Positions 103 through 7,649 are shown, counted from the first letter of the stretch. The stretch is DNA of 64,000 nucleotides from an uncultured Candidatus Saccharibacteria bacterium (GCA_964412585.1 CAYPPJ010000005.1:1512-65511); one strand, 5' to 3'. A program made the numbers and translations. The notes: generated by a model not told the origin, from the letters alone.

Positions 103-741
103 ATGACAACATCACCTATCCCTGTCTCTGACGTGGCAGATCATGCCAAATTGCGCGCCTTGTTGAACCGGCCAAGTTGGACTCTCTTTCCGCCTGCGGC
201 GCAGGCAAAAGAAGCAGGAAATCTCATCTCCCATCAACGCTGCTTGGCAATTCTTCGAAACGTTGAAATATTTACCGTCGGCCATGTCTGTATGAAGACG
301 GAGATGGAACTGCTTAAATACCGTTTCTTCGGACGAAGAGCTCTGGAATATCTCAAACAGTGCGTTGCATCACACAGTCTAAAACTTGGCATGACTTTTG
401 GGCCAGAACTACATGACCAACGCATCGACCACCAGTGCATTTACTGGTATGATACGAACTCCGGCATTAGCCCCCGAGCAAACTTACGTTTCTTTTTTCA
501 GGACCTCAAAAGGACGGATCGTGCGCGTATCATCACGTCGCTCATGGCCGGAGGTGTTTATGTTGCTTACCCCTACAATAGCAGCCCCGGTCACTCACTA
601 AACATTAGTTTCGCTCGGCAATTTCTCCTGTTCACTGAAGCCGACCTCCTCAAGTTTGCCCACGTAAAACCTCGTCACATCGAGTACATCAAGCAGCGGC
701 TGCAAGAACTCGGCGGATACACTTTGTGGAAATACCGGTAA
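103..741 (+). CDS. hypothetical DNA-binding protein with two RNA polymerase alpha-CTD-like helix-hairpin-helix segments
   Basis: Long ORF. The segment ILRNVEIFTVGHVCMKTEMELLKYRFFGRRALEYLKQ resembles the RpoA C-terminal domain HhH pattern (TVGDL..KTEEELLKIRNFGKKSLEEIK). A second similar segment lies near the C-terminus. No other recognisable domain. Confidence 0.45.
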   Translation: MTTSPIPVSDVADHAKLRALLNRPSWTLFPPAAQAKEAGNLISHQRCLAILRNVEIFTVGHVCMKTEMELLKYRFFGRRALEYLKQCVASHSLKLGMTFGPELHDQRIDHQCIYWYDTNSGISPRANLRFFFQDLKRTDRARIITSLMAGGVYVAYPYNSSPGHSLNISFARQFLLFTEADLLKFAHVKPRHIEYIKQRLQELGGYTLWKYR

Positions 742-791
742 CCTCAATTCGCGCAACATCGCGCACGCTCCAAGTGGGGTGTGTGCGAGTT

Positions 792-1187
792 TTATTTTTC
801 AATTTTAAATACTTTCCAACTAAAATAAACAAATACTACTGCGGTTACAACAATCATTATAATCCCAAATACTTTCCCTTGTGTGTTGTCAGTATAAGCG
901 AAGGTATATATGAACTGAAAAATTGCCACCAACAATTGAACAATCGCAAGCAAAAACATTGCAATCGTAAATTTTTCCGTACGGTCTGAAGATTCTTTTG
1001 CTTGCAAAGTACCTTTATCAATCGATTCGTTTAGCTCTTTGATCGCTCGTCTTGTTAGCTCATCAGATGCCAATGGACCAAAAATCGGACTTGATTCATT
1101 AATAATATGAAGCAACTGTTCTTTTGTAGAATCTTGTATTTTGGGATGAAAGTTACTCATATAATTATTATTTCTTGTAAGAAGCAA
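792..1187 (-). CDS. hypothetical small protein with two C-terminal transmembrane helices
   Basis: ORF in a very AT-rich patch. Hydrophobic C-terminus (FLLAIVQLLVAIFQFIY ... IIMIVVTAVVFVYF). The start is probably the internal Met at 1160. Forms a co-oriented pair with the next ORF. Confidence 0.4.
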   Translation of the reverse strand: MLLTRNNNYMSNFHPKIQDSTKEQLLHIINESSPIFGPLASDELTRRAIKELNESIDKGTLQAKESSDRTEKFTIAMFLLAIVQLLVAIFQFIYTFAYTDNTQGKVFGIIMIVVTAVVFVYFSWKVFKIEK

Positions 1188-1923
1188 CTCTTTGATTCAA
1201 TAACTCCATTCTTTCATCGTTAGTTTTTGGGATGTAGCCTATCTCTTTTTTCCAGATTTGGTAAAGTTTTGCAGTATACGAAAACTTATCATCCATAACT
1301 CCAATACGAACATATAGAGGGATTGCCAATGTCTCAATCAACTCAACAAAAGGTTTTTTAATGGATGACATCGCCAGATGTGTCTTGCTTTTTGTATTCA
1401 TAATTCCAATAGAAAATTCTTCTACTGTATTGAGGCAATACAAAATTGAATATTCCACCTCCACATCTCTGGAGACTATATCATTATAAGTTTTAACAAG
1501 ATCTTTTTGGCTCGTCCATGTCTTCTTATCAAAATCCTCCTTTGAAAATATTAGTGTGCGTGAATTTTTACTATTTGGAAGTTGTGGAATTATTATTTTC
1601 TTTTTATTTAATAATTGCTTCATTTCCCACTCAGAACGAAGCAACTTATCACGAAAAAACCCAACAAATTCAAGTGCTGTTTTAGTTTTTGTATCAGCCC
1701 TTTCTTCGTATCTACTAATATATTCAACAACTGCGAAAAGCGCGGTGTAAGCAATCAATAATTGTGCCCAATGATAAATTCTATCTATCGTAATGGACTC
1801 GTACCAATTCTCGATCGAAAAAAATATTATGACTTTATTTACTATCCAATATACAAGGAAAAAACCAACTAAATATACTCCCCACTTTAATATACAAGCC
1901 CCCCAAAATTTAACCTTTTCCAT
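1168..1923 (-). CDS. hypothetical membrane-anchored protein (N-terminal TM helices plus a ~170 aa soluble domain)
   Basis: The annotated ORF runs to 1992 but its first 23 codons (Arg/Lys-rich) overlap uvrB in another frame. The likely start is MEKVKFWG at 1923. AT-rich, like its partner ORF. Confidence 0.45.
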   Translation of the reverse strand: MEKVKFWGACILKWGVYLVGFFLVYWIVNKVIIFFSIENWYESITIDRIYHWAQLLIAYTALFAVVEYISRYEERADTKTKTALEFVGFFRDKLLRSEWEMKQLLNKKKIIIPQLPNSKNSRTLIFSKEDFDKKTWTSQKDLVKTYNDIVSRDVEVEYSILYCLNTVEEFSIGIMNTKSKTHLAMSSIKKPFVELIETLAIPLYVRIGVMDDKFSYTAKLYQIWKKEIGYIPKTNDERMELLNQRVASYKK

Positions 1924-1924
1924 A

Positions 1925-4105
1925 TTATTTTTCTTTCTTCCTTTCCCCCTTCTCCTTCTTAACCTCCTTCTCCGCCCTCTTTTCAATCTCAATCAACTCA
2001 TCTCGTATCAACGCCGCGGTCTCAAAATCCAGCGCCTTGACGGCCTCTTCCATGGCGGCCTGTTTCTGCTTCATCAAGAGCTTAGGATTGGTGCGCGCCA
2101 GTTCTTCATCGATCTTGACGAGCTCATTGACGGCCTTCTCATGCTCGGTACGCAGCTGATCGGTAATATCATGAATAGCTTTCTTGATGGTGACCGGCGT
2201 GATGCCATGCTCCTTATTGTAGGCAATCTGCAGCGCGCGGCGGCGATCGGTCTCCTTGATGGCGCGATCCATGGAACCGGTGAGGTTGTCGGCATAGAGG
2301 ATAACACGGCCGGCGGCATTGCGGGCAGCACGACCGATGGTCTGAATGAGCGCCGTTTCGGAGCGCAAAAAACCTTCCTTGTCGGCATCGAGAATACCGA
2401 TGAGCGAAACTTCAGGCAGGTCCAGTCCCTCGCGCAGGAGGTTGACGCCCACCACGATATCGTACTTCCCTTTGCGGAAATCCGTCAGAATATTGATGCG
2501 CTCGATGGTCTTGATGTCGCTATGCAGATACACCGCCTTGATCTGCTTTTCCTTGAGGAATTCAGAGAGGTCTTCAGCCATTTTCTTGGTTAATGTGGTA
2601 GCGATCACACGGTCGCCACTTTCTATAGTCTTTTGAGCTTCTTCAATGAAGTCAAAGATTTGACCCATGTAGGGAGTTTTTGAACGTTCCTTCGAAGGGG
2701 CCTTCGGACTGAGCGAAGGCGAAGGAGAACGAGCCGCGTCCTCAGCAGAGGACGACGGCGTACCCTGAGGAGGAATGTGCGAAAACTCCCGAATGGGTCT
2801 GATTTCTACAATTGGGTCAATCAATCCAGTAGGTCGAATAACTTGCTCCACCACCTGCTTACTCGTCTCTGCTTCATATTTGCCCGGCGTGGCCGAAGTA
2901 TAGATCATCGGACCCACACGCTCGAGGAATTCATTGAACTTCAGCGGTCGGTTATCTTTTGCCGAAGGCAGTCGGAAGCCATGCTCCACCAACGTATCCT
3001 TGCGCGAAAAGTCACCCGCATACATACCATTGAGTTGCGGGATGGTCACGTGCGATTCATCGATGATGGTCAAAAAATCTGCCACCATTTTGCCCGTCTT
3101 GGGATCTTTCTTTTTTGGGAAGTACGAGAGCAGCGTATCAGGCGGCTCGCCAGGCATCATGCCGGAGAAATGTCGTGAGTAGTTCTCAATGCCGTTGGTA
3201 TAGCCAATCTCCTTGATCATCGAGAGATCGTATTTGACGCGACGCTTGAGGCGCTCGGCTTCGAGCATTTTGCCCGCCTTCTCGAGCTCTTTGAGTCGAC
3301 CGACCAGCTCGGCCTGAATGGTTTTGTAGGCACGCTCACTCTGTTCATCAGTCGAGATAAAGTGCTTGGCCGGAAAAACAAAGATGGTGTCATGTGTGGC
3401 ACGGACCGAGCGCGAGACCGGATCCAGTTCGGTGATGGTAGAAATGCTCGAACCCTCGTATTCGAGTCGATAAATCGTTTTTTCATTGACCGGCATAATC
3501 TCGATAGTATTCCCCACCGCACGGAAGTTGCCGGAGTTCACATCAGCAGTGGTGCGTTCGAAATGAATGTCGATAAGCTTGCGAATAAGTTCAGCGCGCG
3601 ACAGTTCCATGCCCACTTTCAATTTCAAATTCACCTTTTCATATTCCTCCGGACTTCCCAAACCATAGATGCAGGAAACTGAAGCCACAATGATGACATC
3701 TTTACGAGTAAGGAGCGCCTGGGTCGATGCGTGGCGAAGCCTTTCAATTTCTTCGTTGATCATTGCCTCTTTCTCAATGTAGGTATCGCTTGAGGGAATG
3801 TAGGCCTCGGGCTGGTAGTAGTCATAGTACGAAACAAAGTAGTGCACCGCATTGTTGGGGAAAAATTCACGGTACTCCTGGGCAAGCTGGGCTGCGAGCG
3901 TTTTGTTGTGAGCAATGACGAGAGTTGGTTTGCCATATTGAGCAATTACATTGGCGGCCGTAAACGTCTTTCCTGAACCGGTCACACCGAGCAGAGTCTG
4001 ACTATCGAGCCCCTTCTTGAGCCCATCCACCAACGACAAAATAGCCTTTGGCTGGTCGCCGGCTGGTGCGAAGGGAGTGGCTATTTTGAAGGGTGAACTG
4101 CTCAT
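1925..4105 (-). CDS. uvrB: excinuclease ABC subunit B
   Basis: Walker A motif GVTGSGKTFT, helicase motifs, and a C-terminal UVR domain (ALIRDELIEIEKRAE). 726 aa. Contains a ~45 aa Ser/Pro-rich insertion and a Lys/Glu-rich tail. Confidence 0.95.
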   Translation of the reverse strand: MSSSPFKIATPFAPAGDQPKAILSLVDGLKKGLDSQTLLGVTGSGKTFTAANVIAQYGKPTLVIAHNKTLAAQLAQEYREFFPNNAVHYFVSYYDYYQPEAYIPSSDTYIEKEAMINEEIERLRHASTQALLTRKDVIIVASVSCIYGLGSPEEYEKVNLKLKVGMELSRAELIRKLIDIHFERTTADVNSGNFRAVGNTIEIMPVNEKTIYRLEYEGSSISTITELDPVSRSVRATHDTIFVFPAKHFISTDEQSERAYKTIQAELVGRLKELEKAGKMLEAERLKRRVKYDLSMIKEIGYTNGIENYSRHFSGMMPGEPPDTLLSYFPKKKDPKTGKMVADFLTIIDESHVTIPQLNGMYAGDFSRKDTLVEHGFRLPSAKDNRPLKFNEFLERVGPMIYTSATPGKYEAETSKQVVEQVIRPTGLIDPIVEIRPIREFSHIPPQGTPSSSAEDAARSPSPSLSPKAPSKERSKTPYMGQIFDFIEEAQKTIESGDRVIATTLTKKMAEDLSEFLKEKQIKAVYLHSDIKTIERINILTDFRKGKYDIVVGVNLLREGLDLPEVSLIGILDADKEGFLRSETALIQTIGRAARNAAGRVILYADNLTGSMDRAIKETDRRRALQIAYNKEHGITPVTIKKAIHDITDQLRTEHEKAVNELVKIDEELARTNPKLLMKQKQAAMEEAVKALDFETAALIRDELIEIEKRAEKEVKKEKGERKKEK

Positions 4106-4884: not shown

Positions 4885-4917
4885 GGGAGGGACGCGGCAC
4901 AGGGTCGCGTTCCTCCC
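4885..4917 (+). terminator. 12-bp GC-rich hairpin (gggagggacgcg...cgcgttcctccc), putative terminator of the 4380 ORF
   Basis: Stem at 4885-4896 and 4906-4917 with one G-U pair. A T-rich stretch follows. Confidence 0.4.
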
Positions 4918-6005
4918 TCTCTCACCACTGTTAGTGTTCTTTCAAGGGTCAGATGTCCCACATAAAATATCATGATGCCAGCCCACACATTCTGTGGGCT
5001 TTGTCGTTTATGGAATACAAAAAATCCCGCACACCACCTCCTTGGCAATGCGCGGGTCGTCGCTATGGCAGATCTCAGTCTGAACCTTAATAGCAACAAA
5101 ATTCAAAGTCCATTAGTGCCACCCCAACCACCGGATAGAAATTCCCACGATGAACGACTCCGACGATCGCGACCTTTGTATTGGCCGATTTTTTCACGGA
5201 GTGCATTTGGATGACTCTTGTAATACTGATAGTTGCGATCCTTGCGCTCTTTTGTGCGCCGACTGAACTCATCAATAGAAATCCACTCGGACTGATCTGG
5301 TGGTAATGACCAATAATGCCACCCAAGCCACTGTCCATCAACGAAGGTCCAACTAACACTTCCGTGTGTTGGCGCTTCAGTAAATGGACGTGTTGTGTCT
5401 TTTGAGCGAAACCGCTCGACTCCGTTAACCGTCGTTGTACTCATGTTATGCCTTTGGTTGTGCGCTGATGATGGGGTTCGTTTCGGCGGGAGGCCGCGGC
5501 ACAGAGGGAGCTGAAGTTGAGACAGCTCCGCCCCATACCATACGGCCATCCCGCCAAAGTGTTATGCGGTAACCGCGAGTTCGCATCGCAGCTGCACGGT
5601 AAATGCATATGTCGATGGATGTACCCAGCGGATCGGAATCGTGACCGGCAGCTTCTTCGATTTGAATAAGCGAAGCGTGCGTCCTCCCCGGCCCGACAGA
5701 CGGACCGAGCGACGCGCCGCCGGCAAAAGCGGTGTGGTTATGCCATTAGTGAGTGTTTTCATAGGCAATGGATGTTGAATTGTAAAGAACAAAACAGGCT
5801 CCGTGTTCGTTTGGAGCCTGTGTCTGTAATTAATTGAGGGGTGAATTCATTACAAAGACTGACTCCAAACATGCTTCCAAATGGTAAGCACGTACGAGTT
5901 GCGGGTCATCTTTGTAAAATGGAAATTCATATGCGTTAGTGATGAGTATTATACCAGGTATCGTAGATTATGCAAGCTATAAGTTATTCACAGCATAAAT
6001 AAACA

Positions 6006-6038
6006 AGGCCTCTACGAGAAAACGGTTCTCGCGAGGCC
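6006..6038 (-). terminator. hairpin ggcctc-ta-cgagaa aacgg ttctcg-c-gaggcc followed on the minus strand by a T-rich run
   Basis: Inverted repeat read directly. On the minus strand it is followed by TTGTTTATTTAT. Lies 260 nt downstream of the tkt C-terminal gene. Confidence 0.45.
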
Positions 6039-6046
6039 ATGTGGTT

Positions 6047-6250
6047 TCAGTGGACAGCTTCCAGTCGAGACGACCGAGCTGCCACCTCTCCGATGATTTC
6101 TCCGTCAATTCGGCGAAAAGGATTGAGCTGATGCCGAACTTCAGGTTGTTCATCGCGCGGTTCATGGTCTTCCCCGCCCTCGATACAGCTTGGGAATGGA
6201 ACACCAGAACTAGTCCGATCATGGAATAACTGCATGACGTTGCGTGCCAT
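6047..6250 (-). CDS. possible small protein (67 aa) co-transcribed downstream of split tkt
   Basis: The ORF ends 9 nt before the 6006-6038 terminator hairpin. The overlapping alternative ORFs would run through the terminator. Weak support. Confidence 0.2.
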   Translation of the reverse strand: MARNVMQLFHDRTSSGVPFPSCIEGGEDHEPRDEQPEVRHQLNPFRRIDGEIIGEVAARSSRLEAVH

Positions 6251-6298
6251 AATCAGGTTTGGTTCGCTCGAAACTATACCATATATATGTATAGACGG

Positions 6299-7315
6299 CT
6301 ATCTCCTCAACATCACCCTCTGAACCGCCGCATAGATGTCTTTTTCACCCATGCCATAATGTTCGATGAGCTCATCAGGCTTCCCCGTCTGCCCAAATTG
6401 ATCTTTGACACCAATAAATTCTATAGGTACTGGAAAATGTGCAGCTAGACATTCTGCTACTGCTGAACCCATACCGCCGGCAATCTGATGTTCTTCAACA
6501 GTAACTATTCCACCAGTCTCATGAGCGAGCTTGATAATTGCGTGTTCATCTAACGGTTTAATCGTGGCCAGATTTAATACAACAACCTCCTTCCCTTCGT
6601 CTTCAAGTTTTTGTGCGACTTTCAAAGCTTTGAAAAGAAGTGCTCCTGTGGCGATAATGCCAATAGAATTTTTTGGTGCTTTTGAATTACCCGCTACCTT
6701 TTTTGTCCGAAATACTTCTTGCGCCTTTCCGATTTCAAATGGCGTGTCTTCAGTGGTGATGATGGGTGTCTTTTCGCGAGCTAGACGTATATAGGTCGGC
6801 GAATTTGTCTTGGCCGCAGCGATAGTCGCTTTCTTTGCTTCGATTGCATCACATGGTGAAATGACCACCATCCTCGGCAATACGCGAGTAATGGCAATGT
6901 CCTCAAGCGCCTGATGACTTCCTCCATCAGGGCCTACTGACACTCCCGCGTGTGAGCCAGCAATCTTGACTGGTCGGTTGTTGTAACAGACCGTCGTGCG
7001 AATCTGTTCCCAATTTCTTCCTGGACTAAATACGGCATACGAACTCACAAATGGAATCTTTCCCATGGCTGCCATGCCAGATGCCACACTGACCAAGTTT
7101 TGTTCTGCTACACCAATCTCGGTAAAGCGTTCAGGAAATTTCTTTTTGAATGCTTCCATCTGGGTCGATTCGGTGAGATCTGCGCAAAGACCAACGACGT
7201 TTTTATCTGCTTCGGCTGCTTTTAATAGACCTTCGCCAAAACCTTTGCGAATAGGAACTTGCTCGACTGTTTCGTCGAAGAGTTTGGGGTTGAGTTTTTG
7301 AGAGGGGGTGAGCAT
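6299..7315 (-). CDS. transketolase, C-terminal subunit (pyrimidine-binding and C-terminal domains)
   Basis: 338-aa ORF with a transketolase pyrimidine-binding domain pattern (PIRKGFGEGL, FTEIGVAEQN, GPDGGSHQALEDIA). It is the second half of a split tkt. Confidence 0.9.
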   Translation of the reverse strand: MLTPSQKLNPKLFDETVEQVPIRKGFGEGLLKAAEADKNVVGLCADLTESTQMEAFKKKFPERFTEIGVAEQNLVSVASGMAAMGKIPFVSSYAVFSPGRNWEQIRTTVCYNNRPVKIAGSHAGVSVGPDGGSHQALEDIAITRVLPRMVVISPCDAIEAKKATIAAAKTNSPTYIRLAREKTPIITTEDTPFEIGKAQEVFRTKKVAGNSKAPKNSIGIIATGALLFKALKVAQKLEDEGKEVVVLNLATIKPLDEHAIIKLAHETGGIVTVEEHQIAGGMGSAVAECLAAHFPVPIEFIGVKDQFGQTGKPDELIEHYGMGEKDIYAAVQRVMLRR

Positions 7316-7322
7316 ATGACTA

Positions 7323-7649
7323 TTAACTAGCTACGATCGACTTAGAAATTCCCGCAACAACTACAGCAACCATCGAACAGACGAGGACAATTTTATGCAT
7401 CTTAGTGATCGGCTGTTTCCTCTTTTTATAAATTATAGCGCTGATTATAAGTCCCAAAATAGAAGCTGCTAACAGTGGCCAAAATATGAACAATTGAGCA
7501 AGAACAAATTGAAGGCCAGAAAATATACACTCCATGTGAGTGGTAGTACGGCATGTATTGAATTCTAATACATATGCAATATCGGATCCTACTGACCCCA
7601 ACACTCCTATAGAACTTAACCAAGCAAAAGTTTTTATTGTGTTATTCAT
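7323..7649 (-). CDS. small hypothetical membrane protein inserted between the two transketolase subunit genes
   Basis: 108 aa with 3 predicted TM helices. Tightly packed between 7657 and 7315, on the same strand. Confidence 0.5.
   Translation of the reverse strand: MNNTIKTFAWLSSIGVLGSVGSDIAYVLEFNTCRTTTHMECIFSGLQFVLAQLFIFWPLLAASILGLIISAIIYKKRKQPITKMHKIVLVCSMVAVVVAGISKSIVAS

Follow-up and report, generated by a model that had tools for sequence, protein, structure and literature searches.

The kind of feature described here, cargo carried in a hotspot flanked by core genes or in a defence island, is well known in bacterial genomes. The lactococcal abortive infection (Abi) genes are AT-rich single genes whose protein products are anchored in the membrane at the N-terminus, and in the proteins of the Pfam family DUF4760 (PF15956) a hydrophobic helix at the N-terminus precedes a helical domain. 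Bacteria of the candidate phyla radiation (CPR, Patescibacteria) have tiny genomes and are nucleotide scavengers that depend on DNA uptake. To our knowledge, they mostly lack CRISPR, and little is known about how they deal with phages and foreign DNA. Here we analysed positions 792-1923 of a stretch of 64,000 nucleotides (nt) deposited as DNA of an uncultured Candidatus Saccharibacteria bacterium (GCA_964412585.1 CAYPPJ010000005.1:1512-65511; the whole stretch is referred to as the window). This AT-rich segment carries two membrane-protein genes, named gene A and gene B, immediately downstream of the DNA repair gene uvrB. With moderate confidence, we regard them as two unrelated, independently mobile genes that were brought as foreign cargo into a hotspot beside uvrB and that probably serve in phage defence or exclusion at the membrane.

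The window organism is a Candidatus Taylorbacteria (Patescibacteria/CPR); its UvrB shares 95% identity with the protein of a Candidatus Taylorbacteria metagenome-assembled genome and 66-82% with those of about 78 other species of Paceibacteria/Patescibacteria. We compared the surroundings of uvrB in 80 related Paceibacteria/Taylorbacteria species (L018-L097). The results showed that gene A, gene B and the gene for a 212-amino-acid (aa) protein next to gene B were absent within 6 kb of uvrB in all of the 80 species. The usual order among them was uvrB, a response regulator gene (about 265 aa) and uvrA. The response regulator gene was located no more than 300 nt from uvrB in 41 species and after an insertion of 0.36-3.7 kb in 10 species; there was none within at least 2.5 kb of uvrB in 16 species, and the contig was too short in the remaining 13. 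The ancestral order is uvrB, response regulator, uvrA. In the window strain, the order read in the direction of uvrB is uvrB, gene A, gene B, the 212-aa gene (-), a 48-aa gene, a 151-aa gene (-), RhuM, the response regulator, GerE (-) and UvrA, with 3462 nt between uvrB and the response regulator. The strain is present on 8 listed contigs from several metagenomes, one of which (L001) matches the window without a difference over 4045 nt.

Other species carry other genes at the same junction. An AAA_15/OLD-type ATPase gene was found there in the closest species (L018, uvrB 95% identical), and the cargo elsewhere comprised a gene for a membrane-anchored 362-aa protein together with PIN_12 (L031), DUF3800 with an alpha/beta hydrolase (L032), DUF2335 (L033), and unknowns; the cargo in these other species is often AT-rich. 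Because differing cargo occupies one junction in different species, the junction between uvrB and the response regulator-uvrA genes is a recurrent variable hotspot between conserved repair genes. Horizontal transfer mostly among Patescibacteria, and genomic islands bearing restriction-modification (R-M) systems, have been described in groundwater Patescibacteria (PMC12455944). The sequence-only reading of this DNA had proposed that 792-1923 is a horizontally acquired accessory cassette, and this is supported by its absence beside uvrB in the 80 species, by the ancestral gene order, by the other cargo present there and by the AT-richness of family A in all hosts examined. Synteny of the cassette does not extend across the lineage, and A and B are not members of housekeeping families.

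The closeness of gene A to uvrB raises the question of whether A and B partner UvrB in this lineage alone, as accessory repair factors at the membrane that are co-transcribed with uvrB. Gene A begins 1 nt past the uvrB stop; in another organism (70% identity of UvrB), a family A gene encoding a 48%-identical protein directly follows uvrB, and in a third organism a 60%-identical B homologue lies one gene downstream of uvrB. None of the 80 related species, however, has A or B near uvrB, in the closer relatives (uvrB identity 77-95%) that place is taken by the response regulator or by different cargo, and most members of both families are located far from uvrB. A hotspot next to a conserved core gene accounts better for the repeated adjacency to uvrB. 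Since synteny is lacking, the idea of a UvrB partnership is largely refuted, and we consider it very improbable.

The predicted AT-rich discontinuity was borne out by the composition of the window. The GC content of 792-1923 is 32.4%, compared with 47.5% in the left flank (1-791), 51.2% in uvrB (1924-4105) and 46.6% in the whole window, and this segment is the lowest of the window. By using a sliding frame of 1132 nt, the global minimum (32.3%) was located at position 788, and the next-lowest non-overlapping stretch of the same length had a GC content of 41.1%; the sliding mean was 46.6% with a standard deviation of 2.9, which places 792-1923 at 4.9 standard deviations under the mean. At the gene level, the GC content and the GC content at third codon positions (GC3) were 32.4% and 30.6 for gene A and 33.1% and 27.6 for gene B, respectively, while the 61 genes at the level of open reading frames (ORFs) in the window have a mean GC content of 47.2% (standard deviation 4.1) and a mean GC3 of 48%.

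A word-indexed protein search with gene A gave zero matches and missed even the identical 251-aa protein of the same collection. By exhaustive phmmer search over 1.84 billion representatives (E <= 1e-3), 80 relatives of gene A were obtained, mostly 200-260 aa in length. The source names of the family proteins are only 'hypothetical', and one of the sources is Candidatus Pacebacteria / Paceibacterota. In all of the 7 non-self contexts examined, family A is a solo gene, and 2 of the 7 adjoin mobile-element genes. Besides the gene that follows uvrB, a family A gene was found 3 nt after a histidine kinase gene, directly after rpsG (encoding ribosomal protein S7) on a Paceibacteria contig (L102:5368-6723), and amid genes of unknown function in 2 contexts. 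Within Paceibacteria genomes the family is dispersed, and frequent positions are the 3' ends of housekeeping genes and the vicinity of mobile-element genes. The genes of family A have a low GC content in all hosts examined, 30-38% vs 39-52% for the host. The family A gene after rpsG occupies the usual place of fusA and so breaks the order of the str operon.

The two contexts with mobile-element genes bear on whether a CPR phage or another mobile element left A and B behind at uvrB, as a remnant or as morons; superinfection-exclusion genes would be one example. In one of them, a 40%-identical homologue of A lies between genes for Bro-N, 2'-5' RNA ligase and a tail-fibre chaperone (Peptidase_S74) and a gene for a PLD-SNF2 helicase; in the other, the homologue adjoins a gene for a 613-aa serine recombinase. 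The insertion in the window also contains a RhuM-family gene. Against such an origin, neither family was found in IMG/VR contigs, family A had no match in GenBank phages or plasmids, and the window island has no integrase, att-like repeats or structural phage gene. We therefore consider a phage or element remnant quite unlikely.

A single-sequence search with gene B gave only 4 proteins. A profile built from 3 of them (E <= 0.1) extended the family to at least 185 proteins, and the taxa, where named, are all CPR: Kaiser-, Portnoy-, Wildermuth-, Magasanik- and Daviesbacteria, Pacebacteria, and Parcubacteria and Patescibacteria groups. The family B gene follows a co-oriented, highly variable gene, with a gap of usually 3-8 nt from the stop of this partner. 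The upstream partners of the R-M type comprise type III Res (ResIII), EcoO109I, Eco57I/MmeI-type proteins, type I S subunits and MutH/DpnI-like nucleases; further partners are AbiTii, a reverse transcriptase (RVT) and T5orf172. A partner with the domains DUF8370 and DUF8371 matches the PADLOC candidate PDC-M36A (7e-12).

To describe these neighbourhoods in numbers, 134 non-redundant proteins encoded no more than 3 genes from B at 62 loci were analysed with Pfam. The commonest families were N6_N4_Mtase (10), ResIII, Eco57I, Methylase_S and UPF0020 (6 each) and N6_Mtase (5), followed by Peptidase_S24 and SWI2_SNF2 (4 each) and AAA_15 and AAA_21 (3 each); MvaI_BcnI, GmrSD_N, OLD TOPRIM and SLFN_AlbA_2 were each matched twice. 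Family B thus marks R-M and defence neighbourhoods in CPR genomes, and its association with R-M operons across CPR phyla appears to be new.

Several further observations were made on the partners of family B. A gene for a 486-aa protein with DUF8370 and DUF8371 (L104:3536-4996) is followed after 4 nt by a two-helix B gene (5001-5375). This combination is present in two different contexts (L104 and the P0003 contig), one of which is directly downstream of uvrB, and it may be a true recurrent pair; nothing was found in the literature on DUF8370, DUF8371 or PDC-M36. In a Candidatus Kaiserbacteria locus (L009), a gene for a 369-aa protein (4895-6004), located after a MazG-like gene, overlaps the B gene (6001-6525) by 4 nt. 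By eye, the 369-aa protein looks like an EVE/PUA-like N-domain joined to a PD-(D/E)xK-like C-domain; it had no Pfam hit. The spacing of 3-8 nt was tried as a mark of a self-inserting cassette and was dropped, because such spacing is usual in CPR operons.

The neighbourhoods of both families decide how far A and B belong together. The sequence-only reading had offered toxin-immunity pairs and holin-like modules as examples, and in its strict form this means a dedicated two-component module (an effector with a membrane partner, a toxin with its immunity protein, or a holin-like pair) that was acquired together and works only together. The two genes point the same way at a distance of 7 nt, and their GC contents (32.4 and 33.1%) and GC3 are near-equal, which fits a single acquisition; moreover, B nearly always trails a co-oriented partner by a few nucleotides and could be a generic second component. 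Yet among 187 loci, A and B occur together only in the window lineage (L001-L008) and never at the other loci (13 with A, 85 with B), and the dedicated pair is thus not borne out. Family A is solo in its 7 other contexts, the partners of B are mutually unrelated, short gaps are normal in CPR operons (e.g. L107), and there is no lysis or toxin family match. The holin-like form fares no better: the matches of gene B to holin PHROGs are at E 0.24-0.8, and there is neither a lysis context nor any hit to viral contigs. A dedicated module is in our view unlikely.

Returning to the reading of two independent cargo genes, we analysed the two proteins themselves. In the alignment of 55 family A sequences (A1), N165, E168 and W224 are invariant, and F89, F90, R91, E169, E197 and Y221 are near-invariant; the motifs of the family are FFR(E), LNxLEEF and LYxxWK. 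The AlphaFold2 (AF2) model of gene A is wholly helical (pLDDT, the predicted local distance difference test score, 92.3; predicted template modelling score, pTM, 0.79) and comprises an N-terminal helix (2-36), a helix of about 60 residues (46-107) that opens with a second hydrophobic stretch, and 7 more helices. Gene A had been described as having N-terminal membrane helices and a cytoplasmic domain of about 170 aa. The N-terminal membrane anchor and a soluble domain, of about 180 residues, were confirmed; the second helix is weaker (residues 50-68 are under the Kyte-Doolittle (KD) threshold of 1.6), and the soluble domains of both A and B are predicted to be cytoplasmic by the positive-inside rule. 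A HEPN-like active site in gene A was considered and dropped, as the protein lacks an Rx4-6H motif and H182 varies within the family. Comparison by hhalign revealed no relation of family A to the DUF8370/DUF8371 protein or to the anchored 362-aa protein encoded after uvrB in L031.

In gene B, the two C-terminal transmembrane helices expected from the sequence were found as hydrophobic segments at residues 61-90 and 92-120. The N-terminal 45 residues are highly conserved, with F4, L16, N21, L30, A31, S32, E34, L35, T36, R37, R38 and L43 invariant in alignment A4. Among the B proteins listed, most are about 87 aa in length and consist of the N-domain and one C-terminal helix; two helices are present in a subgroup of about 120 aa that includes the window protein. 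The AF2 model (pLDDT 78.7) shows two short helices, a long helix (28-88) entering the membrane and a return helix (93-121). A sub-threshold Pfam match to XRN1_D2_D3 was seen in 26 of 34 B proteins (best E 1.3e-4) and may be a short-motif coincidence.

A and B are real genes, since both belong to conserved protein families, with 80 relatives found for A and 185 for B. That the two ORFs are chance frames in AT-rich non-coding or decaying DNA would agree with an AT-rich sequence of unknown origin and with the lack of any family annotation; it is contradicted by the many diverged homologues with conserved motifs and lengths, by the confident models of both proteins and by the identity of the sequence in 8 independent assemblies, and its probability is practically negligible. 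The coordinates of the genes, of their domains and of the flanking features are summarized in Table 1.

Table 1. Features of the AT-rich segment and its flanks, in window coordinates
Feature	Position	Strand	Basis
Gene A, 251 aa + stop	1168..1923 (coding 1923-1171)	-	ORF; same 251-aa gene called on 8 metagenome contigs
Gene A residues 6-38, strong hydrophobic segment, first membrane helix	1810..1908	-	Kyte-Doolittle; AF2 helix 2-36
Gene A residues 50-68, weaker hydrophobic helix, second membrane helix or membrane-associated	1720..1776	-	Conserved hydrophobic block in alignment A1; start of AF2 helix 46-107
Gene A residues 71-251, conserved all-alpha domain (FFR, LNxLEEF, E197, Y221..W224)	1171..1713	-	Alignment A1, AF2; predicted cytoplasmic
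Gene B, 122 aa + stop	792..1160 (coding 1160-795)	-	ORF, family; identical protein on 22 contigs
Gene B residues 1-60, conserved soluble N-domain, motif PLASDELTRR	981..1160	-	Alignment A4; AF2 helices 6-9, 13-21, 28-88
Gene B residues 61-120, C-terminal two-helix membrane hairpin	801..980	-	KD segments 61-90, 92-120; AF2 helices 28-88, 93-121
uvrB, 726 aa, upstream boundary of the insertion	1925..4105	-	Pfam domains of called gene
212-aa gene, RNA polymerase alpha-CTD (C-terminal domain)-like domain, convergent to gene B	103..741	+	Pfam RNA_pol_A_CTD 8.7e-6
Terminator-like hairpin + T-run, where gene B and the 212-aa gene converge (gap of 50 nt)	759..798	+	

The two ORFs within 792-1923 are co-oriented on the minus strand, as had been proposed. 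Gene A starts with the ATG at 1923 rather than with the TTG at 1992, and the uvrB stop that precedes it is a TAA (1925-1927). An overlap of the two genes had also been proposed and was not confirmed, for it arises only when the TTG at 1187 is taken as the start of gene B. Because all homologues of gene B begin with MSNF or MKNF, which matches the ATG at 1160, there is a gap of 7 nt after the gene A stop and no overlap. No strong promoter-like site was found between uvrB and gene A. Given this and the spacers of 1 nt and 7 nt, gene A and gene B are probably transcribed by read-through from uvrB. The hairpin beyond gene B, at 759-788, has a stem of 13 pairs, 8 of them GC pairs, followed by GTTTTATTTT; when the minus strand of this region was folded alone, it was no better than shuffled sequences (z = -0.17). 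The 212-aa gene has a host-like GC content of 49%; it lies inside the same insertion of about 3.5 kb, is lineage-specific and encodes a helix-hairpin-helix domain.

Some side observations concern the surroundings of the cassette. A search with Rfam over the window gave only a tRNA-Gln. Repeats around the island are only short matches that are probably due to chance; among them, an exact 14-nt direct repeat, TGAGTTGATTGAGA, is located at 1987-2000 (the 3' end of uvrB) and at 1332-1345 (in gene A), encodes ELIE in both places and is probably a chance match too. The UvrB of the window contains a low-complexity insertion of about 35 residues rich in Pro and Ser (PPQGTPSSSAEDAARSPSPSLSPKAPSKERSKT; about 2681-2785, residues about 441-475), which the UvrB of L013 lacks. 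A contig from a different sample (L003) is identical to the window lineage only from the 3' end of uvrB to the 151-aa gene (positions 4974 and 7498 of L001), and past this part it carries genes for DUF5874, elongation factor G (EF-G) and S7; this reflects either a rearrangement between strains at the cassette or an assembly chimera. Elsewhere in the window, a 108-aa ORF at 7326-7649 (-) has several hydrophobic segments and a GC content of 37%, the second-lowest of the ORF-level genes.

In the explanation that we favour, two membrane-protein genes are stacked head to tail in a variable site and are most likely read through from uvrB. Both would come from the pool of genes engaged in conflict with phages and foreign DNA, and the cell membrane would be their site of action. 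Gene A would probably be a single-gene sensor-effector of the Abi-like or exclusion type, in which the polar residues R91, N165, E168, E169 and E197 form a putative binding or catalytic site. Gene B would probably be a stand-alone membrane-tethered factor. Since its N-domain of roughly 55 residues is highly conserved while the neighbours vary, this domain would probably bind a conserved cellular or invader component and not the variable neighbour. A further proposal, which we put forward only tentatively, is that gene B belongs to a new CPR-specific membrane-tethered class of small proteins that is a functional component of R-M and defence operons, and that gene A is a new single-gene membrane defence protein whose fold has no detectable relative among solved structures or those of phage proteins. 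If so, the PLASDELTRR domain of gene B might bind its target at the membrane and place nucleases at the site of DNA entry, or the protein might be a membrane effector or exclusion factor.

The following results weigh against this explanation. Neither gene A nor gene B had a significant match in Pfam, PADLOC, NCBIfam or PHROGs; families A and B are absent from these collections, and no literature on either was found. In Foldseek searches against PDB and BFVD, the model of gene A matched nothing below E 0.1. The PDB sequence-profile search gave only noise for gene A and likewise for gene B, which had no significant PDB match. The sequence-only reading had suggested a search of defence-system profiles: A and B match 0 families of PADLOC-DB 2.0 at E <= 1, so that no named class is shown, and the defence flavour comes by association, through family B. 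We infer a defence function of A and B from genomic association; it is a case of guilt by association, since there is no match to a defence model, Pfam family, structure or phage protein. Even the association has exceptions. Some of the genes upstream of B match housekeeping-type Pfam families (GyrA, and the RNA polymerase alpha-CTD, DnaA_C and sigma-70 region 4 domains), and B is not tied to defence genes exclusively. Family A was seen in only 7 non-self contexts, where the neighbours are mostly housekeeping genes or unknown. As for mobility, there is no integrase among the called genes, no tRNA nearby and no boundary repeat, and the remaining genes of the insertion of about 3.5 kb have a host-like GC content.

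As an island, the locus is ordinary; its potential lies in leading to undescribed membrane-level immunity components in CPR bacteria. The hotspot between uvrB and the response regulator-uvrA genes can be mined for new defence genes in Paceibacteria. Family B offers a widespread, unannotated, small membrane-tethered lead that marks R-M and defence operons across CPR phyla, and family A is a confidently modelled all-alpha membrane family without a detectable structural relative. If it is true that B works with restriction systems at the membrane, DNA uptake would be linked to restriction; otherwise, the two genes are ordinary accessory DNA.

Compared with known systems, gene B is like SLATT proteins and holins in being a small protein with a two-helix membrane hairpin. 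It differs from them in that the hairpin is C-terminal, the conserved part is the soluble N-domain and most members of the family have a single helix. Against SLATT_1 and SLATT_5 (NF033634, NF033631, PF18160), gene B gave E values of 0.08-0.11 and about 12.4 bits, the cutoffs being 41 and 60, and only 2 of 34 members of the B family reached E 0.009. There are no SMODS, SLOG, TIR, endolysin or lysis genes beside the cassette, the neighbours of which are uvrB and the RNA polymerase alpha-CTD-like gene.

For gene A, weak PADLOC hits were obtained among the 55 family members: 3 to 2TM_IV (best E 3.9e-4), 1 to Csx23 (2.3e-4), and PDC-M02B. The 2TM effector (2TM_IV) of CBASS (cyclic oligonucleotide-based antiphage signalling systems) and Csx23 resemble gene A in having two N-terminal membrane helices and a small cytoplasmic helical domain. 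They differ from it in that gene A of the window itself is unmatched and has no PDB Foldseek match at E < 1; no cyclase/CD-NTase, cas or other signal-generating genes are present near the cassette or in the other family A contexts. DUF4760 is the sole Pfam family matched by more than one member of family A (2 of 55, best E 0.0056, far under the threshold), and the protein of the window does not match it. DUF4760 shares with gene A the plan of a helix followed by a helical domain; it has no known function, and one incidental mention was found in the literature. The lactococcal Abi genes, too, are like gene A in being solo, lower in GC than the host and patchy in distribution, and in encoding a membrane anchor with a cytoplasmic domain, and they differ from it in that gene A has no sequence or fold match to Abi models (Pfam, PADLOC). 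Finally, the locus as a whole differs from known hotspots and defence islands in that this hotspot and the families of its cargo are undescribed as far as our searches show, and in that no recombination sites were found; it shares with them a conserved junction, a varying and mostly AT-rich cargo of the defence type, and the lack of a dedicated integrase.

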